Origin: a virus
Length of the DNA: 64,000 nucleotides
Reading direction: 5' to 3' (one strand)
Virus record (IMG/VR): IMGVR_UViG_3300035698_028866
Location: 1 to 64,000 of that record
Positions 14,865 through 50,653 of this stretch are shown piece by piece. A model generated the notes under the pieces. The model ran no database searches, had not been told where the DNA came from, and saw nothing but the letters and a program-made list of their open reading frames with translations. Positions within the stretch are counted from its first letter, which is position 1. Every line of letters begins with the position of its first letter. The position numbers were made by a program, and so were the translations under genes.

Positions 14865-16873
14865 GTAGAACTTGAAACAGCATTGGACAAAACTGAAAGA
14901 AACAAAGAACTATCTTGGTTCTCGCCCAAAGCGGAGAGAACATACCTTCCATACTCCTTGGCAAAAAGCTTGGCACGTTTGTTCGTGTCTTCTGGCTTCC
15001 CTCCCATTTTTCTCAGCTTAGGACTAGTAGGATACTCCATAAGTGACACAGCTACACGAGACATCAGGGCCTCTCCCTCAACAGAGAACGCCTGCTTGAG
15101 TGTCTCAGCCGCCTGTTTAATGTTATCTGGAAGAATTGTAAGGGGATCTGACTCGTAACGTCCTGCAGAAAGGAACTCGCTAAGGTCTTCCGTCTCTCGT
15201 ATGCAACTGAATACGTTAGGAAGAGCAGCCGAAGCCTCTTTCGCAAGCTCAGGTGCACCTAATAGCAAAAAGAAAGCGTCCGCGGGAAGAACTATGCTGG
15301 CTCGCTTCAATGCTGTAAATACTACACGAGGGCGCACCTTTTTGAGCTTATCGAGTGCGCTCTTCACACTATGCTCATTATGTATCCCGACTCTGTTATC
15401 CACGGCTCTAAGCATATCTTCCATAGGAGTCCCAGGAGAAAATCCCATAGCCTCTACTTCTTTCTCCATCTGGGACAGCTTTTGAAGCATTGCGATCTTC
15501 CTGCGCAGGTCGTCTTCGCCTATTGCAAGTAAGACCTCTTCGGGACAATGTATCTCCATTTCCTTTGCCAGAACGTGCCCCGGCTTCTCAAGATCAGAAA
15601 GACCAGCCACCTTGCCCAGACCATAGCCAATTCTATCAGCTTGGCGATAAACTCCAGACAAGTCAATGAACGTAGGTCTTTCGTTTACCATGATGACCTG
15701 ATGTCCGTTGTCTAGTATGGCTCCCGCATTTTTTTTGATATGCTCACAGTGGTCGCTCAGTTTTGGAGCTATATGCCCACAATAGGAACAATTATGGACG
15801 GCACAGCCTCCTGCGACGTAGCTCTCATCCTCTTCTACAGCCAGATTATAAACACTATGAGCTCCTGCAAGAGGAACAATGGACTGAATAGATTGATAAA
15901 TATAGTCATCAACTATAAAGTTTCGGAGACGACCACAGGCTTTCTTGCAGTCTTCAGCAATAACAGTAGGACAACAAACATAGTCCCCTATGGAAAGACT
16001 AGATAATGGAAGAAACTCTGGGTGAATGTTTGTTTCTTTACCACAAAAAGAACAAACCGAGGTATTATCAGCAAACGTATGCCTGCGTTTCTTTCCGCCT
16101 GCAGATCCGTGACAAGCTTCAAGAGGCTCTCTGTGCACTCCAAAAAAAGGATGATTATTAGTCACAGCAATTGGGTCGGGATTTCCATGAAGTTTTAGCC
16201 ATACAACTGGAGCCGTTCTCTGAAACTTCTTTGTAACTCTTCTAAAACGTCCTCTATGAGTTAAAACCTCGTCGCCAATTTGAACGTTTTCGATAGAAAC
16301 TAAGCCATCTCTAGTCTCTATTAGTGTTCCTGCGCCAAAACAAACGTCGTTTTGAACGTCAGCACTCATGGAGAACGGAGAAGGTTTTCCTGCTTCCATA
16401 TCTGAGAGCTCATCGCGCCAGTCCGCATCCTTGAGCCATGCTACGACCTCTACTCTTCCGCACTTATCATTATGGAGGGCGGAATGAATATCTCCCTTTG
16501 CGAACTTAGGATCTCTGTTCTTATGGTCCTTGTAGATCTTAGCAAACTTCTCAAAGGTCTTGTATCTTGTATCCAGAGCTTCCTTGACATTGTAGAAGGG
16601 ATTACCGTCCCTTGGGCTATCGATACGAACAGGACCTGCATGACCCGGAAAGCCGTCTGCGTTCTTGTTAGCCCCAAAGTGTTCGTAGTCGCCCATAGCT
16701 AGGACGAAGACGGGAGTGTATCCTGCACGCTTTCGAAGGTTTGTTCGTGCCTGGGTAAGAAAAGAGGCACGCTTCTCAAACTCTCCTGTATCAGGGCCCT
16801 TGGAGGAAATCTTAAGGATCTCCGCAGTAGGAAGACCGAAGTCAAAACCATCTGTGAAGCTTACTTTTATCAT
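14861..16873 (-). CDS. Putative prohead (capsid maturation) protease with intein
   Basis: GANKNADGF, IYKDH (His), FSMS (Ser), DV|CSYCG..CEH zinc motif, FIDLSGV..AD; position upstream of scaffold and MCP. Confidence 0.7.
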   Translation of the reverse strand: MIKVSFTDGFDFGLPTAEILKISSKGPDTGEFEKRASFLTQARTNLRKRAGYTPVFVLAMGDYEHFGANKNADGFPGHAGPVRIDSPRDGNPFYNVKEALDTRYKTFEKFAKIYKDHKNRDPKFAKGDIHSALHNDKCGRVEVVAWLKDADWRDELSDMEAGKPSPFSMSADVQNDVCFGAGTLIETRDGLVSIENVQIGDEVLTHRGRFRRVTKKFQRTAPVVWLKLHGNPDPIAVTNNHPFFGVHREPLEACHGSAGGKKRRHTFADNTSVCSFCGKETNIHPEFLPLSSLSIGDYVCCPTVIAEDCKKACGRLRNFIVDDYIYQSIQSIVPLAGAHSVYNLAVEEDESYVAGGCAVHNCSYCGHIAPKLSDHCEHIKKNAGAILDNGHQVIMVNERPTFIDLSGVYRQADRIGYGLGKVAGLSDLEKPGHVLAKEMEIHCPEEVLLAIGEDDLRRKIAMLQKLSQMEKEVEAMGFSPGTPMEDMLRAVDNRVGIHNEHSVKSALDKLKKVRPRVVFTALKRASIVLPADAFFLLLGAPELAKEASAALPNVFSCIRETEDLSEFLSAGRYESDPLTILPDNIKQAAETLKQAFSVEGEALMSRVAVSLMEYPTSPKLRKMGGKPEDTNKRAKLFAKEYGRYVLSALGENQDSSLFLSVLSNAVSSST
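15791..16342 (-). mobile_element. Mini-intein (184 aa) in prohead protease
   Basis: Starts CFGAGTLIET, block B TNNHPF, ends VYNLAVEEDESYVAGGCAVHN, +1 Cys; no LAGLIDADG motif. Confidence 0.92.
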
Positions 16874-18060
16874 GGGGACACTCCTTGGGCTTGTGCTAAG
16901 GAACTCTGTCTAAGCTTAACTTGAATCTTCATCGCTTTAGCTTGTTTCAAAAGAGCCTCAAGCCGCATAACCTTGCCTGTGAGATCAGGATAGTATTTCT
17001 GTGCAAAGTCAGGACGCATTCTGTCGAGATTGGATTTGGCCTCTGTGTAGTACGTATTCAATCCTGAAAGGGTCTCGTCTAACTTCGGATCCCAACTACC
17101 CATGGTCTTATTGTTCAAAATATCATTAGCAAGACGCACCCCAGAGTCTGCTGCAGCGCTAGACCTAGAAACTGACTGCTTCTCAACTAGTGATCTCTGT
17201 CCTCGTTTACCATTCTTTCTCGTCGCTTGCTCATAAGCCTGAACCATGTTAGGAGAAAGGTCAGTTCTGTTTTTCATGCGTCTAATATGATTCCAAATAG
17301 GAGAATAGAGCCCCTGATTCACTTCAATTAGGTCGTTTGATCTATAATTCCTGGCCATGTCGGCTATGACCTCCTTACGAAGAGGATCAACAGGATTGTT
17401 AAGATCATAATTATGGGCCCAAAGCTCTATCTCTGGCTGCATCTCCTTGATCTTCTTATTGTACTCTCGATTTAAAACGTATCCTGCCGCAAGGGGAGCT
17501 GCAACAAGAGTACCACCCCCCAAACCTAATGAACCCGCTCCGAGTGCAAACTTCGTACCTGCCCAACGAGTAACGGCTGGAATAGCAGTCTTTAACGCAA
17601 AATAAGACGCGAGTGCTCCTCCGATCAGAGGCCCATGCTTCTTCCCAAATGTTTTTGCTCTACCCATCATTGTATCTTCTGGAAGTGTGGGATCTCTTGT
17701 GAAAAGGTCCTGGATACCACCCTGCAGCTGAGGATAGAAGTAACCACCAGCTCCGCCTGCAGCTCCCCCAATAGCCATATTTCTGATATAGTCTGCCATA
17801 CCTGCGTTAGGATTCATCATAGCCATAAGCGCCCCACCACCGGCACCCAAAGCTGCTCCAGGAAGAACATTCTTGTTCGCCATAATCTTATCGATCCAAC
17901 TGCCTTCTGGATCATCAGGAGTAACTGGAGGAGTAGCTGGAGTCACAGGAGGAGTAGCTGGAGTCACAGGAGGATTTGTAACTCCCCCAGCCACCTTTAC
18001 CAGGTCGCAACGCTTTATCAGAAAGCTTTGAATGTTCTCCGTTGCATCTTTTCGCATCAT
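16870..18060 (-). CDS. Putative internal virion protein with leader, PPVTPAT repeats and glycine-rich hydrophobic segments
   Basis: Likely start MMRKD at 18060 (RBS AAAGGA); KVA-G site; GAALGAGGGAL...GGAAGGAGG segment. Confidence 0.65.
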   Translation of the reverse strand: MMRKDATENIQSFLIKRCDLVKVAGGVTNPPVTPATPPVTPATPPVTPDDPEGSWIDKIMANKNVLPGAALGAGGGALMAMMNPNAGMADYIRNMAIGGAAGGAGGYFYPQLQGGIQDLFTRDPTLPEDTMMGRAKTFGKKHGPLIGGALASYFALKTAIPAVTRWAGTKFALGAGSLGLGGGTLVAAPLAAGYVLNREYNKKIKEMQPEIELWAHNYDLNNPVDPLRKEVIADMARNYRSNDLIEVNQGLYSPIWNHIRRMKNRTDLSPNMVQAYEQATRKNGKRGQRSLVEKQSVSRSSAAADSGVRLANDILNNKTMGSWDPKLDETLSGLNTYYTEAKSNLDRMRPDFAQKYYPDLTGKVMRLEALLKQAKAMKIQVKLRQSSLAQAQGVSP

Positions 18061-18082
18061 AAGTCCTTTCGCAAACCTAAAC

Positions 18083-19528
18083 TTATCGATCTTTGCTTTC
18101 CTGCAGACGCCTGGCCTCATCTATCAGGGAGAGGGCCTGTGAGGGCTCCAAACGATACTGAGCAGCCATCATCTGTTGAAGAAGTCCAGAAAGAAGGGCC
18201 TTATGCTCAATAACATTAGGATAGAGCCTGGAAATCTCATTAAACGCATCCACTACATCTTCCGGGGGGTAATCTCTGAGAATTTCATCATGAGATAGAA
18301 TGGTGTTAAGAACAGCCTGTGTCTTTATCTTCATGATCTCATTCTCATGTTGCGGAGTGAACACGTCTGATCCAGATATACGTTCATTGTGCTCCTCCCT
18401 GTCGTCCATAGTGATATCGTGAAGAGCACCAGTAATAGCTTTTGCTTTTCTAAAGAAAGTAAGGGGCAGATTTTCAATACCTAATGGCTCCATGCTCTTT
18501 GAGGGTACTTCCTTTTTCGGTTTCTGCTCTTTCGGTCCAATTCGCTTCTCCTGCCCGGAAACATCCGACACGTTAAGTGCCAGAACATCCGCTTCCGGGC
18601 TAGAGGCTTTTTTTGATTGAGGTCTCGTGTCTATGCCGTAAAGGGAAAGAAAACGCTGTGCTACCCCAGGTGAATCCGTAAGGTCTATGATCTCCTGTGC
18701 AGCAGCCATCTTTTCCTGCCCGATCCTTTTTCTAGACTTCTCCAGCGTAATGATCTTCCTGCAGGTATCCACCCCTGATGCGATAGTTGCATAGGGAGAG
18801 GTAGCCATGTCTGTTGCAAGAATACCAGAAGACACACTGCCTCTCTTCTCAGCCCCAATATCTCTAGCCAGGGCTTCCATAAAGGCTGTAGAGATACTTC
18901 CAAGCTTGGCGAGAACCCTAGTCTCTACCTCTTCGAAGGCAGGAACAGAGGGAGCGCCAAGTTCTATAGCGGACTTGGACAGCTGGGAGAGAAGATCCCA
19001 CTTCAAGACACGTTCCTCAGCCTTACATGCTCGCTCTTCACGGGCTAGCTTCTCCAACGTATTTCTGCACTTCGCAGTCTTCAGATGAGTGGCTCTGGGG
19101 AACTCACTCGCTTTCTTCTCACCGAAGACATCATGGAGTGTAGGAGTCTCCAAAGACGCAGACTTACGAACGAAGTCTCCGGGATCTCTTCTGTAGAAAT
19201 CCTCAGCGGACACATCCAAAACACCAGCTTCCTTCTTGTAGATGCTGGCCAGAAGTTTCTCACCGTCTATTGCGTCTATGTCCACAACCTTATCGTCCAG
19301 GGCATCAGCACGCTTGATCTGCCCCAGCTGTAGAGAGGTGTTATAGCAGGATACGAGATGCTTCAGGTAGTCTGGAGAGAGATTCTCTTCTTCTGCCACC
19401 TTCACAATAATATCCTGCGCGGGTTCCTTTCCGATCACTCTAGACGCGACCTTCTTGACTGCGCGCATGAACTTTGTCCTGTTCTGAGGCGAGATCTTCT
19501 TAAGGTCTTTATCTGCGTTTTCTCTCAT
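18083..19528 (-). CDS. Putative virion protein, K-x-A-rich
   Basis: 481 aa helical protein with about 11 K-x-A motifs counted by eye. Confidence 0.7.
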   Translation of the reverse strand: MRENADKDLKKISPQNRTKFMRAVKKVASRVIGKEPAQDIIVKVAEEENLSPDYLKHLVSCYNTSLQLGQIKRADALDDKVVDIDAIDGEKLLASIYKKEAGVLDVSAEDFYRRDPGDFVRKSASLETPTLHDVFGEKKASEFPRATHLKTAKCRNTLEKLAREERACKAEERVLKWDLLSQLSKSAIELGAPSVPAFEEVETRVLAKLGSISTAFMEALARDIGAEKRGSVSSGILATDMATSPYATIASGVDTCRKIITLEKSRKRIGQEKMAAAQEIIDLTDSPGVAQRFLSLYGIDTRPQSKKASSPEADVLALNVSDVSGQEKRIGPKEQKPKKEVPSKSMEPLGIENLPLTFFRKAKAITGALHDITMDDREEHNERISGSDVFTPQHENEIMKIKTQAVLNTILSHDEILRDYPPEDVVDAFNEISRLYPNVIEHKALLSGLLQQMMAAQYRLEPSQALSLIDEARRLQESKDR

Positions 19529-20394
19529 TTTATGTCCTCTTCTGTGTCTTCGGTAAAGTCTGCATCCACGTAGTCCGGCAGGCCTTCTGGAAGCCTTCTG
19601 AATTCGTCCTTGGTTAAAAGATCTCCTTCGGCAGGCTCCATAGGTCTTATGTTCAGTTTGTCCATCATATCGTAAACGGCCTGGACTTCAGCAGACGCGG
19701 CCTCTGCTCTGTCCTTGCCCGCAACAAGCCCCATAGCTGCAACCTGTTGTGCCATAACACGCTCCAGAATACTAGGAGCAGACGATCTGGAAACTTTCTC
19801 GCTAAACGTGGCAGTGAGGCTCTTTCGGAGTTCCTTCTGCCCGATGAGATTGACAACGAGTCTAGCCGCCACTGTGTTGGACTCTGTGTTGAAGAGATAG
19901 GACTTGAGTACTTCCCATCCACCGAAGAATCCTACGAGCTTCCATATGTCCTGCTCATCTACCTCTTCCCTGTCACTGAGAACAGACGGCACTAGATTCC
20001 CTATGAAGCATCCCTCAGTATTCAGATTTTCCCTGATGTTGAAGAAGAGTGTCTCATACATACTGATAACGTCTTCGGGAGTGTTCAGGGCTTTGCTGAG
20101 CTCTTTTGCTGTAGCTCCTGCAAAGACACCAGCCTCAAGAACATACTTACGCTTATCAGCAAGGTCGTTTCGAAGAGCAACCGCCTTATGAACTAAGGGA
20201 TATTCCCCCTCTACCAGGTTCACATCCCGCATAGCACCCTTCGTAGACTCCTGAGTATACAAATAGCTCAGGAACAGATTCACGCCTGTATTTCCCCTGG
20301 GATCTATAGTGCGTTTTCGTCTAAAGAGGTCCCGTGCCCGTCTGTAGATGTAGTCGGGAGTACTGACGGCTAAATTTTGAAGCGTAACGGGCAT
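19525..20394 (-). CDS. Hypothetical protein (possible HTH: ATAKELSKALNTPEDVISMYE)
   Basis: 289 aa, coupled to both neighbours. Confidence 0.65.
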   Translation of the reverse strand: MPVTLQNLAVSTPDYIYRRARDLFRRKRTIDPRGNTGVNLFLSYLYTQESTKGAMRDVNLVEGEYPLVHKAVALRNDLADKRKYVLEAGVFAGATAKELSKALNTPEDVISMYETLFFNIRENLNTEGCFIGNLVPSVLSDREEVDEQDIWKLVGFFGGWEVLKSYLFNTESNTVAARLVVNLIGQKELRKSLTATFSEKVSRSSAPSILERVMAQQVAAMGLVAGKDRAEAASAEVQAVYDMMDKLNIRPMEPAEGDLLTKDEFRRLPEGLPDYVDADFTEDTEEDIK

Positions 20395-20395: not shown

Positions 20396-22414
20396 TTAGC
20401 GCCTTACAAGGGGAAGATCGTTGGTCGAGGTTATCTTCTCTCTAACCTTGAGGATAATCTTACCTACGAGATCGAACGCGCTCCTTAGCATGTCTTCGAG
20501 CTCTGAAAGGTCGTCCGCTCCGTAGTCTTCCTTCAGTTTCGGGTAATTCCAGTAGATCGTAAAGAGCATACGTCCCATAGCATCGAGTGCGCCGAGTAAC
20601 TTGCCTAGCTTCTGTCCCAAAATGCGACTCTCGTCCGTAGAGCTCAACATGGCAGAAAGACCAGCTACGTCTACTACTTCATTCTGGCCCTGGTCGATAG
20701 CCTGTTGTGCAAGCTGAACAGCCTGCTGAGCTCCTGGATCCTGAGGCATCTCCGAAGGCATTTGCATGGGCATGGGCATTCCACCGGCAGGCATTCCACC
20801 GGCGGGCATTTGCATAGGCATACCCTGCTCCATCATACCTGCACTTTTCACAAGGTAGGTGATACTCCCTCGGTCCTTTGCAGATTTCAGCATGTCAAGA
20901 GAATCAGACTCAGTCAATTGCATACCTTCTACAAGAGCCTTGAGAGCTTCAACGTGACGGCATGGAGTCTTAGTAATATCAATGGATGCAGACTTGAGCA
21001 GATACCCGGAAGATGCTGACTTTATCGTAACGAGTTTTCCCCTGCTAGTCAGAAGAGCTTCGGCGCTATACTTGTCAAGCACCGGAACCTCCCCTTCCTT
21101 AACAACCTTATACCTGAAGGTGCTAGGGATAACATAACGCTTTTCACGTGTGGAAAAATCGTAACCTCCCTTAGGACAGTAACCTACATCCCCGAGGACA
21201 ACAAGCTTACCTTTAGACTCTGTGATCGTAGCATTGGTGGAGTCATCTAGTATAAGATCTATCTGACCATCCTTCCTTCTGATAATGCTAGTCAACGTCA
21301 CAGGTCCAAGACAGCTTCCGATTCTAGGGCTAACGAAAACAACAGTCTGCCCTTCTTTGAAGCCCTTGTCCTCGGGAAGGGAGGAATAGAACTCATCCCA
21401 TCGTGACTGTGCAACGCTATCAGGATCGTTTAAGGCGTAGAGTGCTTCACGAACTCGCTTGAACGCTCCGCTATCCAAATCTACTATAGTGCTTATTCTT
21501 AGGCCAGGATCTACCTCTTCCCCAGTCTTCTTGTTGGTGAGCACCAGGTATTCTTTCACATCATGATCATAGGTGATAAGCTTGAAGATCCCTGTATAAC
21601 CAGGAGTCTGAAGATTAAGCTTCCCTGCTTCGAGAGCTCTTGCAACCTGAGCGCTCTTCCTGTTATCCCGTACCACGTATTTCTTCTGAACAAAACTAGC
21701 ACGTTCATCATCGGAAAGGTCAGGACTAGCAGTGATGAGAACCTCTACTTCAGCGGACTTCGTGGAACAGTTAAAGCCGCCCGAGTCCTCTTCAAGCACT
21801 ATCTCCATATCGTGTCTGGGACGGAGCCTTTCCACCGCGTTGTCTATTCTGGATGCAAAATGCTCGGCCAGGCGTGTATCAGAGGCCATGACACGGAGGA
21901 GGGCAGACTTCGCGTTGTTATCTGCAGAGTCTATGAAGTCATTCCAGTCAATTTCAAAGCTCTCTGCATTCTTGACGGAGCCGTTTATAGCTTCTATGGC
22001 ACTCTTGACAGTTCCACTTCCCGTGCCACCGCCGCCAAAGTCATTATCGAACACCTTCAGGTCGGGGAATGAAGTCTCGTTGTCACTTACAGTAGATACG
22101 TCCCCAAGAATAACAGGGTCCTTTGACAGGATGTAGTTGACCCACTCCTCATCAAATGGAACAACAAGATTTCTGTCCTTAAGGAAAAGAAGCTCTTCTC
22201 CCTTGGGCTCACCGTCTACGTAAAATAGAGGGGCCAGGAGCCAAAGGTCATCCTTAACCTTAAACACCCGCACACCTACAGTTTTCTCTTCGTCTTCGTC
22301 GTTTTCTATAATCTGAAAGCCGACATTGTAGTCCTTGTAAAGTGCGGGAGCCGCCTCTCTCCGTACAGCGCTGTCTATCTGCGCCAGATCCTTCTCAATC
22401 TGTACATTTGGCAT
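20396..22414 (-). CDS. Putative virion protein, KSA-rich
   Basis: 672 aa; eight KSA motifs; Met/Pro-rich segment. Confidence 0.7.
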   Translation of the reverse strand: MPNVQIEKDLAQIDSAVRREAAPALYKDYNVGFQIIENDEDEEKTVGVRVFKVKDDLWLLAPLFYVDGEPKGEELLFLKDRNLVVPFDEEWVNYILSKDPVILGDVSTVSDNETSFPDLKVFDNDFGGGGTGSGTVKSAIEAINGSVKNAESFEIDWNDFIDSADNNAKSALLRVMASDTRLAEHFASRIDNAVERLRPRHDMEIVLEEDSGGFNCSTKSAEVEVLITASPDLSDDERASFVQKKYVVRDNRKSAQVARALEAGKLNLQTPGYTGIFKLITYDHDVKEYLVLTNKKTGEEVDPGLRISTIVDLDSGAFKRVREALYALNDPDSVAQSRWDEFYSSLPEDKGFKEGQTVVFVSPRIGSCLGPVTLTSIIRRKDGQIDLILDDSTNATITESKGKLVVLGDVGYCPKGGYDFSTREKRYVIPSTFRYKVVKEGEVPVLDKYSAEALLTSRGKLVTIKSASSGYLLKSASIDITKTPCRHVEALKALVEGMQLTESDSLDMLKSAKDRGSITYLVKSAGMMEQGMPMQMPAGGMPAGGMPMPMQMPSEMPQDPGAQQAVQLAQQAIDQGQNEVVDVAGLSAMLSSTDESRILGQKLGKLLGALDAMGRMLFTIYWNYPKLKEDYGADDLSELEDMLRSAFDLVGKIILKVREKITSTNDLPLVRR

Positions 22415-22516: not shown

Positions 22517-23098
22517 TTATGCTCCTAGAATTCTTTCTACTTCTTTAGGATAGCGTTTCTTTACGAGTTCTGTTAGCCGTTCTCTTAGCTCATCGGGTAG
22601 CATCCCCGCCAGCCCACGACCGGCAGCCTCGGAACGGGCCTGTGTTGGAAGAAGAAATCTGCGCCAAAACCCTGTTTCGTCTTCAGGAGTAAAGAAGCCT
22701 TCAAGGGCATTTCTAGGAACACCCATGGAGGAATACTGTGGAAAAAGGCCAAGCGGAGATGTTAAGGCATAAAGCAGTGACTCTGATATGCGTTTTAGGT
22801 TGCTATGAGGGGGTTTCTTCTCTTTTGCAATCGCCGAAACTTCTTTCATAAGTTCAGAGTCCATTTTGTTGATTGCGTTGAAAAACTCCATACTCTCAAA
22901 CGGGCTCTGTGGCTGCCATACGGCTTCTTCTGGCAATAGATCTTTTTGAGCCTTAGCCATCGGGACAGAGATAGGAGATGTAATTAACCGCGTAAGAATT
23001 TCTGGGGTACTCAAGATATTCTGAATAGCACCACCGGCAGCATTCTTAACCAGCACGTCAAAATATGCGTCAATCCGTTGTTTTGCTGATTTATTCAA
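22517..23098 (-). CDS. Leader-bearing putative internal virion protein
   Basis: TTG start; N-terminus MNKSAKQRIDAYFDVLVKNA-AG. Confidence 0.7.
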   Translation of the reverse strand: MNKSAKQRIDAYFDVLVKNAAGGAIQNILSTPEILTRLITSPISVPMAKAQKDLLPEEAVWQPQSPFESMEFFNAINKMDSELMKEVSAIAKEKKPPHSNLKRISESLLYALTSPLGLFPQYSSMGVPRNALEGFFTPEDETGFWRRFLLPTQARSEAAGRGLAGMLPDELRERLTELVKKRYPKEVERILGA

Positions 23099-23120
23099 TT
23101 GCCTAGTCCCCTATATTGGT
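23098..23120. repeat. 23-bp direct repeat, copy 2 (3' end of the beta' C-half gene)
   Basis: attgcctagtcccctatattggt. Confidence 0.95.
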
Positions 23121-25436
23121 TATCTTTCCACTCAATACGATTTGCGGAATTGTTGCTGAAGCTCTTGTTGGGTCACTAAAGGTCTGACCAGAATGTAACG
23201 CGTCCATGAGAGATCCTTTAAGGTAGTATCCCCCCAGGCGCTCCAGCCAGTCAGAAGAATGCTGAAGAGCTTCTACGGCAGGACGCATTTCAGGATCAAA
23301 GGGTGGGGGGACATTGTGCACCGCGATTTCCTTTACGTTGTGCCCCACCATCTCTTTTACCATGCTCGGTGTCAGTCTAGTTCCAATAGTGTAATGCATG
23401 ATGGGTTTCTCCAGCCATGTATCCACAGCTCGCTTCGGATCCATAAGCTTGAAACCTTCTCGAGGCTTATAGGACCTAGCTATCTGAGAATACTCCACAA
23501 TGTCCCCCGGCACCCACTCCCCAAAGCGTGAATTCATCCTCACGTGGTTTATGACCCCTCTTGCCAGATATTCTATGTTCCTCTTGTTGTGTGATATCCC
23601 TGAGTCTTTGAGAGCCTTGGAGAAGATGTCAACGAATAGCTTCCTGCCTTCCCCAATACCCCTATAACGAGCAAGCTCCGCAGGATTGGGTATACCTTCG
23701 CTCAGAACAGTTCCCCTTTCCACGTGCTGCCCCGATCTTACGTTTACGGCTAGACCTGGGGCTATATGGTATTCCTGCGTCCCTACGAGGATATTCTTGC
23801 CTCCTGCTGGTAGATCCAGTATGTCTTTTACGACACCGCCCTGAGAGGCAATGGCTGCACCCCCCGCAAAGCTCTTGGGAACGGTTATGAGCTGCTTCAC
23901 AAGCTCCAGCCCTGTTACTGTTCCTCGGGATACGTGCTTGCTCGCGATAGCTGACTGAGTTAATGGTTCTGAATTACTAACTACCAAACCATTGGCCAAA
24001 AGAAAAAGATGGTCAGGATGATTTACATAGATGTCGTATGTTTTCTTTTTTCCTACACTCTCTGCTGAAATTCTGCAACAGCGATCAATACTATCAAAAG
24101 AGTCCGGCAGAACAGCCTGAAACCTATCAAGATTGTTAGCTAAGCAGAAACTAACAGGACGCTTTGCAACAAGCTCTCCATATGTTTTTTCGCTCTGAGT
24201 CCTATTTGACCTTACGTCTATCGTAGAAAGTATTTTATGATCAGGTGTAGATATTACTTCCAGCAGACACTCTCTAGTAGATTTTCCTGTCCCTCTTCGG
24301 AAGATAGTTTTGATGCACTCCTTTTCTCCGCTGTAACCTGTCTTTAGCACCTCTACTGGTTTAATCTTTCCGTGTTTGCTACATCCGAGAATCCTATCAC
24401 TTAAGGCTATGTCCTGTATTTTTTTCTCGCTCCCATCAGCCATCTGTATTAGAGTGTCTTCGGCCAAACAAAGGCTCTGGGTCGCGGATACTCCTGGGAA
24501 AGAACCTAAGGCAGGATACGTCCCTGTCTCTCTATAGCCTGCAGCCTGTTGAGATATCCCATCCTCTAGCATAGAAGTAGTAGGGGAGTATACGAGGATC
24601 CTTTCGTGCTTTCTTGCAATACGCTTCATGAGACGAGGGGTAAGTACTTCACCAGCCTTTGCAATGTCATCAATGTCTTCTGCAAGCACGGCCCCCTCAT
24701 AATCAGGATCCTTAGGGTCTATGGGAAGACCTATTCCCTTCTCTGGTTCCAGCTGCCCTGTAACTCTAAGTCTAAGAACGGAGCGGAAGAGCTGATTAGC
24801 CAGATACCCAGCCTCGGGAGTTGCAAGCTTCAAAGCGGTGTAGCCTTTTCGTGTTCCATATCCCGTAGTCCAATACTCTTCCGGAGTCAAACCTTCCGCA
24901 TACCCATGGAGAATTGGAACGGGTAGAGGTTTGTCATCATTCCCTACACCATAGATAGGTCCTGCCACGAGATCCAAAGTCTTACCAATTGAGCCTCTGC
25001 TTCCGCTCTTTACCTGGAGGAGGAAAGATGTGTCTCCCTTGTCCTTGACCAGTCTATCCTCCAGAACTCCACGCGAGAGCTCAAGAAGCTTTACTATCCT
25101 ACTGCGCTTTTCCTCGGGTGAAGAGTCACTTGCCACAACGGCGTCTACCTGTTGCTTTAGCTGCTCCCGGATCTCCACCATCTGCTTGGAGAGGGAGAAC
25201 GACTTAGGCGTAAGAGAGCTAACACCACCATACTCCTTTGCGACGTGCTCTCCAAAAAGGTGAAGCCTTCGGAGAATAGCGGCATAGTCTTCAGGGTGAG
25301 CCTTAGCCACTTCGTACATGATCAGCTGAATCTTGTTCTTGTCTATACCCCCAGAGTCAACAAGGTAATGGACATCCTTAGGGAGAATGTCTTTCAGTAT
25401 GAGCTTGCCTATTGTGGTGTTTACTACATTACCCAT
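23103..25436 (-). CDS. rpoC: Phage RNA polymerase beta'-like subunit, C-terminal half, with intein
   Basis: TTIGK, SGSRGS, bridge helix EGLTPEEYW..GTRKG..KLATPEAGYL, trigger loop QSL|SEPLTQ..SKH. Confidence 0.92.
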   Translation of the reverse strand: MGNVVNTTIGKLILKDILPKDVHYLVDSGGIDKNKIQLIMYEVAKAHPEDYAAILRRLHLFGEHVAKEYGGVSSLTPKSFSLSKQMVEIREQLKQQVDAVVASDSSPEEKRSRIVKLLELSRGVLEDRLVKDKGDTSFLLQVKSGSRGSIGKTLDLVAGPIYGVGNDDKPLPVPILHGYAEGLTPEEYWTTGYGTRKGYTALKLATPEAGYLANQLFRSVLRLRVTGQLEPEKGIGLPIDPKDPDYEGAVLAEDIDDIAKAGEVLTPRLMKRIARKHERILVYSPTTSMLEDGISQQAAGYRETGTYPALGSFPGVSATQSLCLAEDTLIQMADGSEKKIQDIALSDRILGCSKHGKIKPVEVLKTGYSGEKECIKTIFRRGTGKSTRECLLEVISTPDHKILSTIDVRSNRTQSEKTYGELVAKRPVSFCLANNLDRFQAVLPDSFDSIDRCCRISAESVGKKKTYDIYVNHPDHLFLLANGLVVSNSEPLTQSAIASKHVSRGTVTGLELVKQLITVPKSFAGGAAIASQGGVVKDILDLPAGGKNILVGTQEYHIAPGLAVNVRSGQHVERGTVLSEGIPNPAELARYRGIGEGRKLFVDIFSKALKDSGISHNKRNIEYLARGVINHVRMNSRFGEWVPGDIVEYSQIARSYKPREGFKLMDPKRAVDTWLEKPIMHYTIGTRLTPSMVKEMVGHNVKEIAVHNVPPPFDPEMRPAVEALQHSSDWLERLGGYYLKGSLMDALHSGQTFSDPTRASATIPQIVLSGKITNIGD
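23973..24470 (-). mobile_element. Mini-intein (166 aa) in the trigger-loop region
   Basis: Starts CLAEDTLIQMADG, block B TPDH, ends TYDIYV..HLFLLANGLVVSN, +1 Ser. Confidence 0.92.
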
Positions 25437-26235: not shown

Positions 26236-26241
26236 ACGTAT

Positions 26242-29603: not shown

Positions 29604-29604
29604 A

Positions 29605-40734: not shown

Positions 40735-40760
40735 ATTCGTCCTCCTTTTATTTGACGTTA

Positions 40761-41435: not shown

Positions 41436-41449
41436 CCTTTTATTTGATG

Positions 41450-42145: not shown

Positions 42146-42146
42146 C

Positions 42147-42341: not shown

Positions 42342-42994
42342 TAGTTTTCCGCCTCTATGTAATAGTTCTCTTCCAAGAAGGCACAAAACCACTGAAACGC
42401 AGGATCCATAGCAGCATAAGCAAAGTCAGCCTCTTTCATGGTCTCGAAACGGAAAGATGCCACTACACTATCTTGATGCCAGTCATTCCCAGGAAGATAG
42501 ACTTTAAGAATTTCTGGGTAGTGAACTGCAAGATCTGGGTTATTGCCGCTAAAGAATACGACATCAGTATCCGCATACTTATAGCTAGCTAGCTCATACT
42601 GAACACGCAGCTCATCAGGCATTACCTTTACCTGAAATCCAATTGTTCTTTTCATCCTGAACAGCAGAGCAGAAAACATAGTAGAGGAGCCCTGGAAGGC
42701 CGAATAAAAATCTAAGTCTGCTGAATCAATCTCAAGAGCATTCTCGTAGTCCTGGTAGATCTGTCTTGGAGTGAGAAGCTTCAATCCTTGGCCAGGGGAC
42801 TCAAACCACAGCGAAATGGGATCTAGAACAATAGATGGGGCATGTCCTTCTCCGCATACAAAACGATGTGCCACAGAATCCCAATACGCCTCAACGACGA
42901 CCGCGTCCATTTCAGTTTGGACATGAGTCTGCATTCTAATCCCATCCTCAACCATCTTACGTCGGGCCTCGTTTGAGTTAACAAATTCAGGCAT
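42341..42994 (-). CDS. Paralog family D protein
   Basis: SNEARRKMV; GFQVKVMPDELR; VYLPG; AFQWFC. Confidence 0.75.
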   Translation of the reverse strand: MPEFVNSNEARRKMVEDGIRMQTHVQTEMDAVVVEAYWDSVAHRFVCGEGHAPSIVLDPISLWFESPGQGLKLLTPRQIYQDYENALEIDSADLDFYSAFQGSSTMFSALLFRMKRTIGFQVKVMPDELRVQYELASYKYADTDVVFFSGNNPDLAVHYPEILKVYLPGNDWHQDSVVASFRFETMKEADFAYAAMDPAFQWFCAFLEENYYIEAEN

Positions 42995-44066
42995 TTCTAT
43001 CTCCTTTTAATTTGCATTGATATTCAGATTCCAGCTCGTCGCAGAACTGAAGAAGGCTAGCTTTCAGGAGCTCGAACACTCTTTCTGGATCTTCAGTCTT
43101 CATTATGGCTATATTTCCATCGGCGGTTCTGTCACTACCAGGAATACCGATATGCAAATAGTCAGGTCCACCAGAGAGAGACGGAACACTCTTACTCTCA
43201 ATGATAACATGGTCACTAAAGTTTTTAACAGCGATATGATGGTTCGTTCCCCTAAGCTCATCAGGCATTACACTGACCTGAAATCCTACCTGCTTCCCCA
43301 TTCTAAACAGATCAGTGGAAAACATAGCTTGCTTGGAAAACGCAATACATGACCATTCATCATCAACGTCAAATGATACAAGATTAAGTGCGCTGTCTGA
43401 GAGAAATAAAGGAGTCAACATTGGCTTTTCGTCCCAATCTATAGTGGCTCCGTGATCCTTTGCCTCTTCTATCATGCGAGTTACGTTCTCGGTCCACTCT
43501 TCCAGCCCCTTTCGTCTGAAGAGCTCTGTCCTAACGCCCGCACCCGTGAGCCTCTTCACAAAACGGGCGGTGACTCTATTGCCAAAAATTTTTCCGCCCA
43601 CAGGACAACTCCTTATCTTTACATCCTGCGCGTTGAAAGCCGCAAGGGTATACGCACTAAGGGCGTGTCCGCAAGCTACTGTGAGATTGAGAAAGGTGGT
43701 CGAAACGTAAACTCCGTGTTCTCCGCCATAAACAACTTTGTTGACGGGATACTCCAGAATTTTGCCTCCAGTGTTCCCGGCAAAAGGACTCTTTCCGTCT
43801 TTGGTTAAGAGCTTAAAGACAAGATACTTAGGGACATTCTCATCCCATGTAGCGCTTTCTACCTCTGAGTCATACTTTTCATACCATACGAGAGCTTCAT
43901 CGGCAATAACTGGATACTTTGTTTTATAGCCATACTGGTTTGAGTCTTTCTTCTTAAAGCAAAATTCAATAGGATCATACCAATAGACATCATCATCCCC
44001 CAGCAGTCCCATATGAGCCCCATTTATCATCATAAGGTGTCTTGCTTCACTTGTGCTATATCCCAT
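42987..44066 (-). CDS. Paralog family D protein with an inserted domain shared with 51235..52275
   Basis: TSEARHLMM; KLLT..G.SP...YPV...GGEHGVYVS; GFQVSVMPDELRG. Confidence 0.75.
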   Translation of the reverse strand: MGYSTSEARHLMMINGAHMGLLGDDDVYWYDPIEFCFKKKDSNQYGYKTKYPVIADEALVWYEKYDSEVESATWDENVPKYLVFKLLTKDGKSPFAGNTGGKILEYPVNKVVYGGEHGVYVSTTFLNLTVACGHALSAYTLAAFNAQDVKIRSCPVGGKIFGNRVTARFVKRLTGAGVRTELFRRKGLEEWTENVTRMIEEAKDHGATIDWDEKPMLTPLFLSDSALNLVSFDVDDEWSCIAFSKQAMFSTDLFRMGKQVGFQVSVMPDELRGTNHHIAVKNFSDHVIIESKSVPSLSGGPDYLHIGIPGSDRTADGNIAIMKTEDPERVFELLKASLLQFCDELESEYQCKLKGDRNA

Positions 44067-46766: not shown

Positions 46767-47441
46767 CTAGAGACCTTGTTCCCCGGCTTCGATGTCCAAG
46801 AATCTCTGGGCTGATGGGTCTTCTACTTGTGATGGATATACACTAGCCTCAATATATCTCTGAATCATGTCAGCCTTCTCTCTCGACTCCCCAGCCTCAT
46901 TCTTATAGAACTCGGGAAGCTTTCGTGCTTCGTTTCTGGAAAGAGTTCCAACGCCAAGCCCTGCACCAGTACCCATCACTCCACCCAAGAGCATAGACTT
47001 AAGATACTCGGGGTTTTCTTTTGCCATGAGCCAAGTCAAAAGAGCTCCTATACCTGCTCCCCCAAGACCCCCTGCGGCGGCATAGGTGGCCTCTCGAGGA
47101 AGGCCTGCTATGTTCGGAAAATGGTCTTCTTTTGATTTTTGCGTAAGCCTATCAGTATTGCCCTTCTCGTGCTGCAGTAACGATCTAAGATCCTCTTGCC
47201 CACGCTGAACCTGCCATTCTTCGGCACTCCTTCCTTTCAGAAACTTCAACCTTCCCTCTAACTTTTTAATTCTATCATCAACATCCCGAATTGAGTCATT
47301 AACAGATCGTGGCTCAGTCCCTGCTTTTATCATAGACATACCATCAAGAACCAAGCCTAGCTGGGCTTCTGCCTTTTTTCTATCGAAAAGACACTGCTTA
47401 CGGAAATGACCATTTATTCTGTCTGCTGCTGATTTAATCAT
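46767..47441 (-). CDS. Leader-bearing putative internal virion protein with glycine-zipper segments
   Basis: MIKSAADRINGHF leader; GGLGGAGIGALLTWLMAKENPEYLK.MLLG. Confidence 0.75.
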   Translation of the reverse strand: MIKSAADRINGHFRKQCLFDRKKAEAQLGLVLDGMSMIKAGTEPRSVNDSIRDVDDRIKKLEGRLKFLKGRSAEEWQVQRGQEDLRSLLQHEKGNTDRLTQKSKEDHFPNIAGLPREATYAAAGGLGGAGIGALLTWLMAKENPEYLKSMLLGGVMGTGAGLGVGTLSRNEARKLPEFYKNEAGESREKADMIQRYIEASVYPSQVEDPSAQRFLDIEAGEQGL

Positions 47442-47449: not shown

Positions 47450-48769
47450 TTATCCTTTTTTAGATCCAAGTTGTGATCTCAACTTGCGTAAACCGCCCTG
47501 AGTAGCCCCGTAGAGATACCCAGCGCGATCTCCAAGCCAACGTGAAAGTCTTGCGTCTGGAGTAGTTCTGTTCTTATATGTATCATAGAAACCTTCTCCA
47601 AATCCCTTAAGAGACTCTGTTGGCTGAGATGCGAATTCCGGCGCGGACACAGTGAGAAATCTACCTAGAGTACCCACGGCCTTTCCGCTTTCGTATGGGT
47701 TAAGAGCTCCAGCTACAGCTCCCCCTATATTATCCTTAGATCCTCGAGAGAGTGCTTCGAGTTTCTTATTGTAAACCTTAGTGTTAAACGCACCAGCACC
47801 CATACCAAGCGCAGCAAGAGCAGTTGCAACTGGAACCCCCCAAGACTTAGCTGCTGCCTGAACCCCGCTTGATGCACTTATACCCGTTCCTAATGTCGCC
47901 CCTGCTCCTGGAAGTGCTCCTACAACCCCCGAGCTAAGAATCCCAGCTGTCGAAGCATAAGGCACAGCTTTTTTTGCTGCTAGGGCATAGGGAGCAGTAA
48001 CATCGGCAGCTGCAGCAACATTTCTTGTTGCAAGTGGATGCTTCGTAGCTGTGCTAATTCCCCCTCTTTGTAGAGCAGTTAGTCTATCCCCCGCCCACTC
48101 TTTTATCGAATTAGGAACGGTTTCTTTCGTAGGAGTTATAAAATCGAACGTTGAAACGGAATGAAGCACATCACCTATCTTATCCCAGCCAGTTGGGTTT
48201 TTGGTTTTTTCCAAAGCCTTACTACCAAACGTCTTCATCACTCCTAAGGTATGCTTTGCCGCAGAAGAAAGATGACCAATTTGTTTGTCGGTCCAAGCAG
48301 CAATTACAGGAGGCTCGAAAGGAATACCAGGGATCTTTTCCTTCATAATGGATGCAAAGCCAGCTTTCATCCCCGGTGTAAGTGGAAGTTTCATATAGGA
48401 CTGTGCAAGCGCCCTTAAGGAGTTAAGAGCTTTTTTTGGGTCTATTTTTTCAATATCGCGTGGCGTCCTAGAAAGATCTAGCAAAGAGGCAGCAAAGACT
48501 ACTACGTTCTTTTTGTGCTCTTCAATCTGTCCCCCAGTCCCCGGAGATGCAAAAAGGGCAAGACGCGTAGAGCCTTTGCCCATATTCCATACGTCTCGAA
48601 TTATACTTGTCTCAGGATCAGTCAAGCCCGTCATGCCACTTAAAGTCTGTTGAACCGCGCCAAAGAGTGAGAATTTCTTGTAGGTTGAACGCGCCTTCAA
48701 AGCCTTTTGGGCTATTGTGGGTGGGGAAGAAGGTTTGGCTGTCTGTTCTTTTGCTGCTAGTTTTCTCAT
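47450..48769 (-). CDS. Ala/Gly-rich basic putative internal virion protein
   Basis: N-terminal KLA-A; hydrophobic Gly/Ala tract. Confidence 0.7.
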   Translation of the reverse strand: MRKLAAKEQTAKPSSPPTIAQKALKARSTYKKFSLFGAVQQTLSGMTGLTDPETSIIRDVWNMGKGSTRLALFASPGTGGQIEEHKKNVVVFAASLLDLSRTPRDIEKIDPKKALNSLRALAQSYMKLPLTPGMKAGFASIMKEKIPGIPFEPPVIAAWTDKQIGHLSSAAKHTLGVMKTFGSKALEKTKNPTGWDKIGDVLHSVSTFDFITPTKETVPNSIKEWAGDRLTALQRGGISTATKHPLATRNVAAAADVTAPYALAAKKAVPYASTAGILSSGVVGALPGAGATLGTGISASSGVQAAAKSWGVPVATALAALGMGAGAFNTKVYNKKLEALSRGSKDNIGGAVAGALNPYESGKAVGTLGRFLTVSAPEFASQPTESLKGFGEGFYDTYKNRTTPDARLSRWLGDRAGYLYGATQGGLRKLRSQLGSKKG

Positions 48770-49728
48770 GCCACCACCCCCAGGGTATTTAAGTCAAATT
48801 TAGTCTTGGGGCGTTCCACCAGTCCCTGTATCCTGTTTACCATGTACTCTTGAAGTTCTGTTGGAGCCTTATCATAGTCAAACTCTCCTGTACGATTTCT
48901 AGACTTCCGGGAAGGGTGAAAGAATGGATACAGCCTCAGTGCATCTTCAGCCTTTTCAGACGTATCGATTATCTCCCCTGTTTCTTGAAAATATCTCTGC
49001 TTGATATGAGAAAGTCTAGGGTCTATCTCTGCTGGCGTAAGACCATACCTTACAAAGTCTTCTGTATATGTATCAAAAGGCTTCCGAGGATTTTTCTTTA
49101 GATACGAATCTGCAAATCTTTGAGACTCGCCTAGAGATTTCCAAAGTGGCTGTTTCCAAAGCTGTAAAGAATGCATCAGCTCATGACGCATAGTTGCATC
49201 AAAATCAGGAGTATATGCTAAGTTAGCGGCATTTACACCTACCTCATCCGTTTTCGTATCGTAATACCCATCGGTCATCGAGTCGGGAGAAAGAGTTTCA
49301 AACTTGACAGGAATCTCCCTATGGAGTGCCTCAGGAGATAAGTCTGGCCATGGAATGTTTTTCTCAGTAGAAGATAGACCTAGCGTCCACTTATTAGGCA
49401 CGCTCACTGGAAACGGACTATCTTTCTGGTGCTGCAAAGCCTTCTGATGCGCTTCATCCCAGCGATCTCCATACTCCATACTCCTATACTGAGGAGCAAG
49501 ATAGGAATGCGGAGAAGTAGTCCCTACGTTAACATCGAAGTCTACAGGTTCCACTAGAGCACGCTGAGATTGATATGATCTACCAGCGCGATGAGCAAGA
49601 GTGTTCAAATTCTTCCGTGTTCGGGAAGGAGGAACCTTTAACTCAGCGCGCTCCCCCTTCTTCTTGAGGCCACGAAGACACTTCAAGTAGAAATACTGAT
49701 CTAAGTGATCTCGTGCAGTATTTAACAC
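48766..49728 (-). CDS. Leader-bearing protein with HExxH zincin-like metallopeptidase motif
   Basis: MLNTARDHLDQYF leader; DGYYD...ATMRHELMHSLQ...PAEIDPR. Confidence 0.65.
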   Translation of the reverse strand: MLNTARDHLDQYFYLKCLRGLKKKGERAELKVPPSRTRKNLNTLAHRAGRSYQSQRALVEPVDFDVNVGTTSPHSYLAPQYRSMEYGDRWDEAHQKALQHQKDSPFPVSVPNKWTLGLSSTEKNIPWPDLSPEALHREIPVKFETLSPDSMTDGYYDTKTDEVGVNAANLAYTPDFDATMRHELMHSLQLWKQPLWKSLGESQRFADSYLKKNPRKPFDTYTEDFVRYGLTPAEIDPRLSHIKQRYFQETGEIIDTSEKAEDALRLYPFFHPSRKSRNRTGEFDYDKAPTELQEYMVNRIQGLVERPKTKFDLNTLGVVA

Positions 49729-49772
49729 TCTCTACCCCAGACTAAAAGTTAAATCCTTTCCTTACCTATAGG

Positions 49773-50321
49773 CTACACCGATATTCCACCTGTAGGAAGC
49801 TCTAGGTCAGGAACAGCTCCTTCGCCCCCGAGCTGATCTTTCCAATAGCCTGCGCCTGCTCCAACACCGCCGCCCGCGAGTGCGCCAAGGAGCATATTCT
49901 TGAGATACTGTGGGTTCTCTTTTGCCATGAGCCAGGTAAGAATTGCACCCAGACCCGCGCCTCCACCCGCTCCCATAAGACCATAGCGAGCAGCAGGATT
50001 ATCAAAAATACCGGATAACCCCTCATTTTCAGAGCCCAGCATCGTAGCCGCATCGCCAGCTTGTCCGCCTATAGTCCGAGTGAGTTGATCGGCATCCATA
50101 TTTTTTAGTTTCTCAAGAGGATCGACATAAGGAGACTCATCCCCTCCACTTGCGAGGCGGTTCGTCGAGACCGGACCGCGCAGCAGCACCTCCGTCCAAT
50201 CCACGGCGCGCTTGTTCATATCTTCCAGAGTAAACCCCAAAGAAGCCTCTGCGACAGCCTTATCGCGAAGACACGTTACACAAAAATGTCCATTTATTCT
50301 TGCTGCAGCTGATTTAAGCAT
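49773..50321 (-). CDS. Leader-bearing putative internal virion protein with glycine-zipper segments
   Basis: MLKSAAARINGHF leader; GAGGGAGLGAILTWLMAKENPQYLK.MLLG. Confidence 0.75.
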   Translation of the reverse strand: MLKSAAARINGHFCVTCLRDKAVAEASLGFTLEDMNKRAVDWTEVLLRGPVSTNRLASGGDESPYVDPLEKLKNMDADQLTRTIGGQAGDAATMLGSENEGLSGIFDNPAARYGLMGAGGGAGLGAILTWLMAKENPQYLKNMLLGALAGGGVGAGAGYWKDQLGGEGAVPDLELPTGGISV

Positions 50322-50653
50322 TATTTATACCTCGGGTAAATGTTGGAAAGGAACTTCTGAGTCTCTTCGTTTATCTGTTTCTCTCGTCGGTTTGCTATCC
50401 ATCCCCCCAAACGCTCTGCCATCCCCCACGGTGTAAAGTAAGAGCCCGTAAGAGGCGCACTTCCTGGAAGAGTAGGAGAATTAGGAGCTAAAGGAATGTT
50501 ACTAACATCTCCAACGGAAGGATCGTGGATGTTGTCTACGGGATCTGCCAAAGCATCCAACACATTGTTTCTTGCCGCAATAGCTCCAGCCTGCTTAATG
50601 AGAGTTCGGCGGGCGAAATACTCAGAAAGACGCTCCTTTGTTGAACTAGGCAT
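50321..50653 (-). CDS. Leader-bearing small putative internal virion protein
   Basis: MPSSTKERLSEYFARRTLIKQA-G. Confidence 0.7.
   Translation of the reverse strand: MPSSTKERLSEYFARRTLIKQAGAIAARNNVLDALADPVDNIHDPSVGDVSNIPLAPNSPTLPGSAPLTGSYFTPWGMAERLGGWIANRREKQINEETQKFLSNIYPRYK

Follow-up and report, generated by a model that had tools for sequence, protein, structure and literature searches.

The window analyzed here, 64,000 nucleotides long, comprises the first 64 kb of a linear, 80,526-bp IMG/VR record (IMGVR_UViG_3300035698_028866; 42% complete according to CheckV) and contains six open reading frames (ORFs) whose products begin with a common N-terminal leader, as well as a block of genes for head assembly. 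Judged by its sequence, the phage is a fragment of a distant relative of Salmonella phage Arash, its nearest cultured relative (capsid proteins, 31% identical). Nearly all genes of the window lie on the minus strand, and the local gene order from the piece of the RNA polymerase (RNAP) beta' subunit to the capsid gene is alike in Arash and in the window (Table 1). According to mass spectrometry (MS), Arash virions contain the subunits of RNAP, the helicase gp217, gp218, and the capsid protein in greater abundance than any other protein (PMC10585845); since RNAP, helicase, and gp218 dominate these data, the Arash-like lineage packs many proteins, including RNAP, in its particle. Megablast against phages and related-locus searches, with g47441 or with the capsid protein alone, returned no close relative of the window beyond fragments of the phage itself.

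The six ORFs had been singled out in a sequence-only reading of the window, and all of them are present on the minus strand with the N termini described there. They open with M-x-[KNS]-[STD]-[AT]-x2-[RHN]-[IL]-x2-[YHF]-[FL]. Among 25,123 residues, five stretches fit the strict pattern [ST][AT]xx[RH][IL]xx[YH]F, each of them at residue 4 of its protein, while shuffling predicts 0.014 occurrences anywhere and gave none at N termini in 2000 trials, so that the proposed motif stands out from shuffled sequence. This pattern was chosen post hoc; the identical position at residue 4 was not. The protein that the same reading had ranked as the weakest member, g18060, indeed joins only with a loose pattern. 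In Smith-Waterman comparisons of residues 1 to 35, most pairs among the five other leaders reach z scores of 4 to 7, and the g18060 leader scores 3.7 to 3.8 against two of them. When 88,674 six-frame windows were scored with three leaders, g50653 ranked first among the non-seeds and g49728 about fifth to eighth. Building a hidden Markov model (HMM) of the N termini, as that reading had proposed, gave a mixed result. The leader profile, run against 1.84 billion representative proteins, found only proteins of this phage and one spurious repeat translation, and leave-one-out HMMs fail or are weak for g49728, g50653, and g18060, which is no surprise with a motif of 13 residues and few sequences. 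The case for the leader therefore rests on position and pairwise scores.

A Shine-Dalgarno-like run lies 5 to 10 nucleotides upstream of all six starts, including the GTG at 49728, the TTG at 23098, and the internal ATG at 18060, which for this reason is favored over the first ATG at 18120. The start of g23098 is the same in two independent gene calls on other contigs. Because the codons of the leaders differ synonymously, the leader is conserved at the protein level and not at the DNA level. We kept g18060 as a member since it has L-V-K-x-A-G-G in common with g23098 and a Gly-zipper hairpin in common with g47441 and g50321.

Behind the leaders stand bodies of several kinds. g47441, g50321, and g18060 have one common Gly-zipper hairpin domain (cargo z scores of 21, 8.0, and 4.3; g50321 and g47441 are 39% identical) and are, by sequence, paralogs, while g49728, g50653, and g23098 have bodies related neither to one another nor to anything in the databases searched (z < 2.7 against everything). 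The claim that the cargoes are unrelated thus holds for the latter three and fails for the former. The H-E-L-M-H of g49728 is a zincin-type motif only, with no family match. Pfam, PHROGs, and PDB sequence searches assigned none of the six leader proteins to a family, and Pfam and PHROGs profiles detected no MuF (SPP1 gp7) or LPD domain in them; profiles do not confirm the Atlas language-model leads LPD38 (0.95, g23098) and LPD23 (0.89, g49728). AlphaFold2 (AF2) single-sequence models of g49728 and g23098 are poor (predicted local distance difference test scores [pLDDT] of 43 and 39), with only a low-confidence N-terminal helix. Homologous-protein searches for g47441, g23098, and g49728 gave self-fragments and one Gly-zipper hairpin, that of P0001, which is the sole database match of g47441. 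A cluster look-up led only to contigs of 512 to 912 bp, and the first 99 residues of g50653 recur identically on a 512-bp ENA contig (P0002).

Four of the leader genes stand with g48769 in a row of five that look like one transcription unit, 24 kb away from the head genes. The product of g48769 has no helix leader, and its C-terminal half is Gly/Ala-rich and hydrophobic; an 844-aa protein of the relative L025 likewise starts with M-R-K-L-A-A. The remaining two leader genes lie inside the head-assembly block, syntenic with Arash virion proteins detected by MS: g23098 is flanked by the RNAP beta'-C gene and the gene for the gp218-like virion protein, and g18060 is immediately upstream of the protease gene. 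The Gly-zipper proteins of the Arash head block, gp221 and gp224, are MS positive in virions.

Table 1. Leader genes, head-assembly genes, and associated elements in the window
Feature	Window position (strand)	Length	Remarks
Terminator-like hairpin	50786-50753 (-)		Before the g50653 promoter; consensus scan only
Near-consensus sigma70-type promoter	50724-50696 (-)		TTGACA-17-TAAAAT, in front of g50653; consensus scan only
g50653	50321-50653 (-)	110 aa	First gene of leader operon; leader residues 1-24 (50582-50653); L-I-K-Q-A-G at residues 18-23; remainder proline/serine-rich with short C-terminal segment
g50321	49773-50321 (-)	182 aa	Leader operon; starts M-L-K-S-A-A (motif copy, residues 1-6), then Gly-zipper hairpin domain
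g49728	48766-49728 (-)	320 aa	Leader operon; GTG start; leader and orphan body with H-E-L-M-H at residue 182
g48769	47450-48769 (-)	439 aa	Leader operon; starts M-R-K-L-A-A
g47441	46767-47441 (-)	224 aa	Last gene of leader operon; starts M-I-K-S-A-A; R-K-K-A-E at 21-25; then Gly-zipper hairpin domain
RNAP beta'-C piece and intein	23103-25436		Arash gp216
g23098	22517-23098 (-)	193 aa	TTG start; leader M-N-K-S-A-K...; L-V-K-N-A-A-G-G at 16-23; orphan helical body
gp218-like protein	20396-22414 (-)	672 aa	Arash gp218; eight K-S-A tripeptides versus about 0.2-0.3 expected (composition estimate)
Two head-module genes	18083-20394 (-)	481 aa and 289 aa	289-aa protein at 19525-20394, weakly similar to Arash gp219
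g18060	16870-18060 (-)	396 aa	Length from ATG 18060; weakest leader, M-M-R-K-D-A-T-E-N-I-Q-S-F-L; L-V-K-V-A-G-G at 20-26; then (P-P-V-T-P-A-T)x3 linker, Gly-zipper hairpin domain, and long C-terminal part
Head-maturation protease homolog	14861-16873 (-)	670 aa	Arash gp222; assignment by transitive homology; intein at residues 178-361 (15791-16342)
Acidic low-complexity protein	13694-14806 (-)	370 aa	Between protease and capsid genes; five K-x-A-[AGS] versus 0.47 expected
Major capsid protein	11760-12707 (-)	315 aa	Arash gp226; phrog_2522; K-E-A-A at residues 26-29

The head-assembly block supplies the context in which the leaders can be read. The assignment of the 670-aa protein as a head-maturation protease is transitive: its exteins are similar to Arash gp222, D69_270, and L062:6037-7644 (E values of 3e-11 to 3e-18), and these in turn match phrog_18299, "head maturation protease" (E values of 2e-6 to 1e-12), while phrog_18299 searched directly against this genome gave no match and T4-type protease families did not match the 670-aa protein. 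The protein has a C-terminal extension of about 250 aa, and seven K-x-A-[AGS] sites flank its catalytic part. Its intein (Hint domain, C...HN/C boundaries) is not found in Arash gp222, D69_270, or L062 and follows, at a distance of nine residues, a conserved S-M-S in which the catalytic Ser may lie. The 370-aa acidic protein is scaffold-like by position and composition. In the capsid protein, K-E-A is invariant at the same place in Arash and Vibrio phage D69 and recurs there in all 17 of the relatives' capsid proteins examined. The 481-aa head-module protein has six K-x-A-[AGS] sites (0.61 expected). Arash gp218 is an abundant virion protein and is not the portal, which is encoded by a separate gene (gp204) (PMC10585845); it matches the capsid protein in virion abundance and has no known function. 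Two stretches of the gp218-like protein of the window resemble the leader, at residues 137 to 151 (K-S-A-I-E-A-I-N-G-S-V) and 509 to 526 (L-K-S-A-K-D-R...Y-L-V-K-S-A-G).

The K-x-A motif that recurs in these proteins is specific to the head module. K-x-A-[AGS] occurs there 26 times in the window genome against 5.5 +/- 2.3 expected (0 of 3000 shuffles), whereas the 82 other ORFs of the genome have 20 copies against 21.7 expected. Enrichment of the longer form [LMIV]-x-K-x-A-[AGS], which is 5- to 30-fold, is confined to head-assembly proteins in this phage, Arash, D69, and 60 related IMG/VR loci, which were retrieved with an alignment of three capsid proteins. In Arash, its density is about 7 per 1000 aa in gp218 to gp226 versus 0.19 to 0.26 over 100 kb elsewhere; gp220, gp223, and gp225 have five to seven K-x-A-[AGS] sites each, and one scaffold-like protein of D69 has ten motif sites. 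Thirty-six of the loci include 10 kb on either side of the capsid gene and were oriented on that gene; they have 2 to 10 motifs per 1000 aa upstream of it, 0 to 0.4 in the 10 kb after it, and 0.09 in antisense ORFs. The motif is found near residues 26 to 29 of every capsid protein examined and at about residues 27 to 37 of the protease homologs, and first sites peak at residues 20 to 40, as propeptide cuts would. The consensus reaches past the search pattern, to [GE]-[LM]-[EV]-K-x-A-[SA], with a preference, not forced by that pattern, for Leu/Met at the second position ahead of the Lys. K-E-A was part of one of the two patterns used for retrieval, which partly selects for the capsid site itself but not for the enrichment seen in the remaining head proteins.

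We infer that this motif is the cleavage site of the head protease, because the distribution of sites (many in the acidic scaffold-like proteins, a single one close to the start of the capsid protein, and others on both sides of the protease domain) matches the pattern of L/I-x-E in T4. That the cut falls after Ala is suggested by analogy with assemblin-fold proteases, which cut after Ala, as at the pseudorabies virus sites YLQA↓T and VQA↓S (arrow, cut) (PMC4498786).

Small genes on both sides of a 2750-aa ORF (window 54753-55688; record 64125-66160) are also rich in K-x-A-[AGS], with 8 copies against 2.2 expected (2 of 3000 shuffles). Several encode Gly-rich transmembrane segments; M-T-K-E-A-A opens one product, and L-T-K-T-A-G is found at residue 5 of another. 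This set of genes may encode additional proteins of the head interior.

The leaders carry the same motif at set places. A complete N-terminal copy, M-[IL]-K-S-A-A, in which the initiator Met takes the Leu/Met position, starts g47441 and g50321, and an N-terminal copy is also present in g48769 and in a 100-aa ORF at 55386-55688. A second copy, L-[IV]-K-x-A-[GA], lies at residues 16 to 26 of g50653, g23098, and g18060, and the R-K-K-A-E of g47441 resembles the K-E-A-E type of capsid site of some relatives. All four canonical sites of the leader operon are at residue 3 or 20, and the bodies are site-free. Between two copies of the motif falls the leader core, [RH]-[IL]-x-x-[YH]-F-x3-C-L, with Cys at position 17 or 18 in four of the six leaders.

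Several other descriptions of the leader were tried and rejected. An amphipathic docking helix is not indicated, the hydrophobic moment being ordinary. A Sec, Tat, or lipoprotein signal peptide does not fit, as the leaders contain no hydrophobic run (mean hydrophobicity of residues 3 to 20, -0.07 to -0.40), no twin Arg, and no lipobox. The Prp/L27-type propeptide is the motif (K)-L-N-L-Q-[FH]-F-A↓S on the capsid and scaffold proteins of phage 80alpha; the leaders have no F-A↓S, and the capsid and scaffold-like proteins of this phage do not start with the leader. Mimicry of the capsid N-arm that follows K-E-A is unsupported despite an hhalign match of leader residues 1 to 15 with capsid residues 24 to 38 (P = 0.005): an HMM of this capsid segment built from relatives finds neither the leaders nor this phage's own capsid protein.

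Relatives of the phage place a shorter form of the motif at the start of many proteins. A motif copy lies within the first 12 residues of 48 ORFs from 28 of the 60 related loci, and 25 of these ORFs, in 12 loci, carry a [YF]-[LIVM]-x-K-x-A-[AGS] core, mostly as M-x-N-K-Y-L-E-K-I-A-[AGS]. The cargo behind these tags falls into 25 BLAST clusters, several of which are Gly-zipper hairpins. N-K-Y-L-E-K-I-A also occurs internally in larger head proteins of the relatives, and so the tag equals the extended site. In a genome-wide check of four genomes of 165 to 185 kb (CheckV, 92 to 100%) and one 109-kb record (61%), the coding pattern of the tag occurs 4 to 9 times per genome versus 0 to 1 for the control, and copies tens of kilobases away from the capsid gene likewise stand at the head of ORFs, three residues behind an ATG.

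One tagged ORF, in the relative L069 (G001:C1:63000-64200), is an ortholog of the Arash gp217 helicase (39% identical; E value, 8e-63), which is represented by 1148 spectra in virion MS (PMC10585845). A 7-residue N-terminal extension of the L069 helicase creates the tag M-N-K-Y-L-V-K-I-A; the Arash helicase does not have the extension. The first 100 kb of the Arash genome contain a single ORF that starts with the motif, gp100 (M-E-K-Q-A-S), and MS data underlie its annotation as a structural protein. In the relative L073 (G005:C1:50000-51500), N-K-Y-L-E-K-I-A occurs twice in one ORF, at the N terminus and at residue 128, where a second Gly-zipper segment follows; the product may consist of two cargo modules linked by a protease site. 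The leader HMM matched nothing in the 60 related loci beyond the K-x-A submotif. The Gly-zipper hairpins of the window match the tagged hairpin proteins of relatives only at an E value of 0.02 with compositional bias, and their likeness is therefore an architectural analogy and not homology.

These observations raise the possibility, which we put at about even odds (a probability of roughly 0.5), that the leader is this phage's own longer version of a clade-wide tag resembling the capsid-targeting sequence (CTS) of T4, by which proteins would be loaded into the head, trimmed, and released with the DNA. The N-terminal 20 to 25 residues would bring a protein into the core of the assembling prohead, with the scaffold, the protease proenzyme, the gp218-like protein, or the inner face of the shell as candidate partners. 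The head-maturation protease would then cut at [LMIV]-x-K-x-A-[AGS/E], probably after Ala, at the copy within residues 1 to 6 of several leaders, at the copy within residues 18 to 25 of g50653, g23098, and g18060, and at the variant site of g47441. Cutting would release the bodies inside the head, and these (Gly-zipper membrane hairpins, the HExxH protein, and two orphans) would exit with the DNA at infection. By analogy with Arash gp221 and gp224, a role of the Gly-zipper hairpins as ejection proteins entering the host envelope would fit. The sequence-only reading had proposed just such T4-like loading of the head through a signal distinct in sequence from that of T4. The distinctness is borne out, since the leaders contain no L/I-x-E. 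The loading itself is supported in part, by a shared N terminus on nonhomologous bodies, a protease gene directly downstream of one leader gene, a K-x-A motif that is specific to the heads of the clade, and a 10-residue tag on many unrelated proteins of relatives, among them the ortholog of the Arash helicase that is abundant in virions.

We also consider, more tentatively and at clearly less than even odds, that the whole clade (phages of about 165 to 190 kb with a virion RNAP, comprising Arash, D69, and at least 60 IMG/VR relatives) may use [LM]-x-K-x-A↓small both as cleavage site and as N-terminal address label, with the protease proenzyme or the scaffold as the receptor, and that this phage adds a private docking element. 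Under this one code, gaining a tag of about 10 residues could bring a helicase, membrane hairpin, peptidase, or orphan effector into the injected payload, and losing the tag could take it out again.

A number of points weigh against loading through the leader. The leader core is private to this phage, going by its absence from the 60 related loci and from the 1.84 billion representative proteins, and its targeting role is purely inferential. The statement that K-x-A usually follows the leader holds, as K-x-A-[GA], for three of the six proteins and was overstated for the remainder: a canonical second site is present in only these three, no clear one can be recognized in g50321 or g49728, and g49728 has none. 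If only the copy at residues 3 to 5 were cut, the leader would stay on the mature protein. As g47441, g50321, and g18060 are paralogs, the sharing of the leader is partly simple descent, and the leader operon is distant from the head genes. The enrichment of K-x-A is partly inflated by internal repeats of the scaffold-like proteins, and the assignment of the protease is transitive. The ortholog of the gp217 helicase and gp100 are the only links to experiment, and they are cross-species; the Arash MS list contains 116 proteins (PMC10585845) and probably includes contaminants.

The leader could instead be the conserved N-terminal domain of a duplicated gene family whose job is unrelated to capsids, such as an oligomerization or membrane-proximal helix of envelope, lysis, or superinfection-exclusion proteins, with bodies that have diverged or been swapped. 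Three of the six proteins are clear paralogs with two-helix Gly-zipper membrane domains, the genome expands other families that keep a common N terminus, the operon has its own terminator and promoter at a distance of 24 kb from the head genes, and the leader is found in this phage only. We nevertheless regard such an origin as unlikely, because the bodies of three members score below 2.7 while their leaders reach z scores of 4 to 7, two members lie inside the head module, the motif specific to head proteins recurs at fixed positions within the leader, and Arash Gly-zipper proteins at the equivalent position of the head module are virion proteins. It is quite unlikely, in our view, that the N terminus is a propeptide for processing only, cut by the head protease or merely resembling its site. 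As such a propeptide, it may restrain the activity of the membrane hairpins and the HExxH protein up to maturation, and incorporation would depend on regions outside the leader. The leaders do contain K-x-A sites, membrane-active cargo plausibly needs restraint, and the tag of the relatives, being equal to the internal extended site N-K-Y-L-E-K-I-A, could be a plain substrate site; yet a protease confined to the prohead acts only on proteins that are already inside, the tags on small, unrelated ORFs scattered in the genomes of relatives imply entry, and a 10-residue tag with no recruiting role is hard to explain.

It appears very improbable that the leader is a tag recognized by some different enzyme, by a chaperone, or by an export route, be it a modifying enzyme (radical-SAM or other) with the conserved Cys17 as its target, a host protease of the Prp/L27 type, or a secretion system. 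Four of the six leaders have a Cys at position 17 or 18, which would suit a modifying enzyme, and staphylococcal phage 80alpha provides the precedent of an L27-like N-terminal propeptide on capsid and scaffold proteins; against this, no Radical_SAM match was found in the 80.5-kb record (itself 42% complete), there is no F-A↓S-type L27 motif, the capsid protein has no leader, and the negative mean hydrophobicity of the leaders leaves no room for a signal-peptide core. Mere chance resemblance of N termini, aided by Lys/Ala codon bias after the start codon, would agree with the failure of leave-one-out HMMs for g49728, g50653, and g18060 and with the fact that N-terminal M-x-K is common in bacteria. 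It is nonetheless extremely improbable given that all five strict matches fall at residue 4 when 0.014 are expected anywhere, that the top ranks of the six-frame scan fall on adjacent genes, and that the pairwise z scores are 4 to 7.

The window has further features that lie outside the leader genes and the head block. cysD-like (PAPS_reduct) and cysN-like GTPase genes (window 25429-29636) adjoin a gene of the type I phosphodiesterase family and a second AlkP-like gene, and this cassette stands directly upstream of the RNAP beta'-C gene. A tail-fiber protein with collagen repeats (G-x-T/P-G-P-T) is encoded at 3065-5596 and two 174-aa paralogs with collagen-like C termini are encoded at 9948-10472 and 10500-11024; owing to such repeats, T-G-P and P-T-G are the most overrepresented tripeptides of the proteome. 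Accessory islands at 31300-37006, 40054-44066, and 51235-52275 contain three expanded paralog families, each with a common N-terminal domain: one of the type M-Y-[VL]-[RH]-E-L, one of the type M-G-W-V-x-P-x-T-W, and a family of about 230 aa in five or six copies.

If loading by the leader is true, the capsid-targeting principle of T4 extends to an unrelated and almost unstudied clade with Ala instead of Glu at the cut, and a simple sequence rule predicts which proteins Arash-like phages inject with their DNA. The predicted candidates are a peptidase, a helicase, orphan effectors, and membrane-inserting hairpins, from which an entry channel may be built. Salmonella phage Arash and phages of the Vibrio D69 type are in culture and would allow a direct test of the rule, and an Arash virion MS data set exists; in addition, a short tag that can be moved from protein to protein would be of practical use in filling non-T4 capsids with foreign proteins. 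The principle itself is already known, from the T4 textbook case and, in a longer form, from phiKZ-like phages (PMC5694885). What is new here is the clade (Arash-like, with a virion RNAP), the proposed cleavage code [LM]-x-K-x-A↓small, the 10-residue tag of the relatives, and the two-part leader.

Several known systems resemble the one proposed here in part. Like MuF (SPP1 gp7) and polyvalent proteins, it would join a constant head-incorporation module to interchangeable effector bodies delivered with the DNA, and cargo of MuF and polyvalent proteins commonly has zincin-type peptidase domains (PMC5512222); MuF, however, is a folded, portal-binding domain of more than 100 residues, and the proteins described here match no MuF or LPD family. 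The predicted site is like the R- and M-sites of herpesvirus assemblin in that an Ala would precede the cut, a small residue would follow it, and a hydrophobic residue stands upstream (PMC4498786). The Y-L-E-K-I-A↓[SG] of relatives is like the pseudorabies virus site Y-L-Q-A↓T, and the long, site-bearing C-terminal extension of the protease is like the pUL26 protease-scaffold fusion. The two differ in that a Lys two residues before the Ala is required here and assemblin sites are not N-terminal tags of cargo. phiKZ, 201phi2-1, and SPN3US are likewise large, and they pack a multisubunit RNAP together with numerous ejection proteins, some of which have transmembrane segments; their diverged paralogs keep a conserved N terminus with protease sites; SPN3US gp53 and gp54, for example, have identical 15-residue N termini (PMC5694885). 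Unlike the protease proposed here, those of these phages cut [S/A/G]-x-E, most of their propeptides exceed 100 residues, and their capsid proteins are much larger and their lineage is unrelated.

The closest parallel is the CTS of T4, which is found on IPI, IPII, IPIII, Alt, and gp24 and is removed by the prohead protease gp21 (Mullaney and Black 1996, summarized in PMC5694885). The leader differs from it in having no sequence similarity to M-K-T-Y-Q-E-F-I-A-E, no hydrophobic-x-Glu ending, a motif of [LM]-x-K-x-A with a small P1 residue in place of L/I-x-E, and a greater length (about 20 to 25 residues), with two motif copies and a private core; the clade is unrelated to T4-like phages, with a capsid protein of about 300 aa and a multisubunit RNAP in the virion. 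As in T4, a short N-terminal peptide is common to otherwise unrelated proteins and would end in or contain the cleavage motif of the head protease, the cargo bodies are free of sites, the gene for the prohead protease is next to those for scaffold and capsid proteins, and the clade-wide tag of the relatives is 10 residues long.

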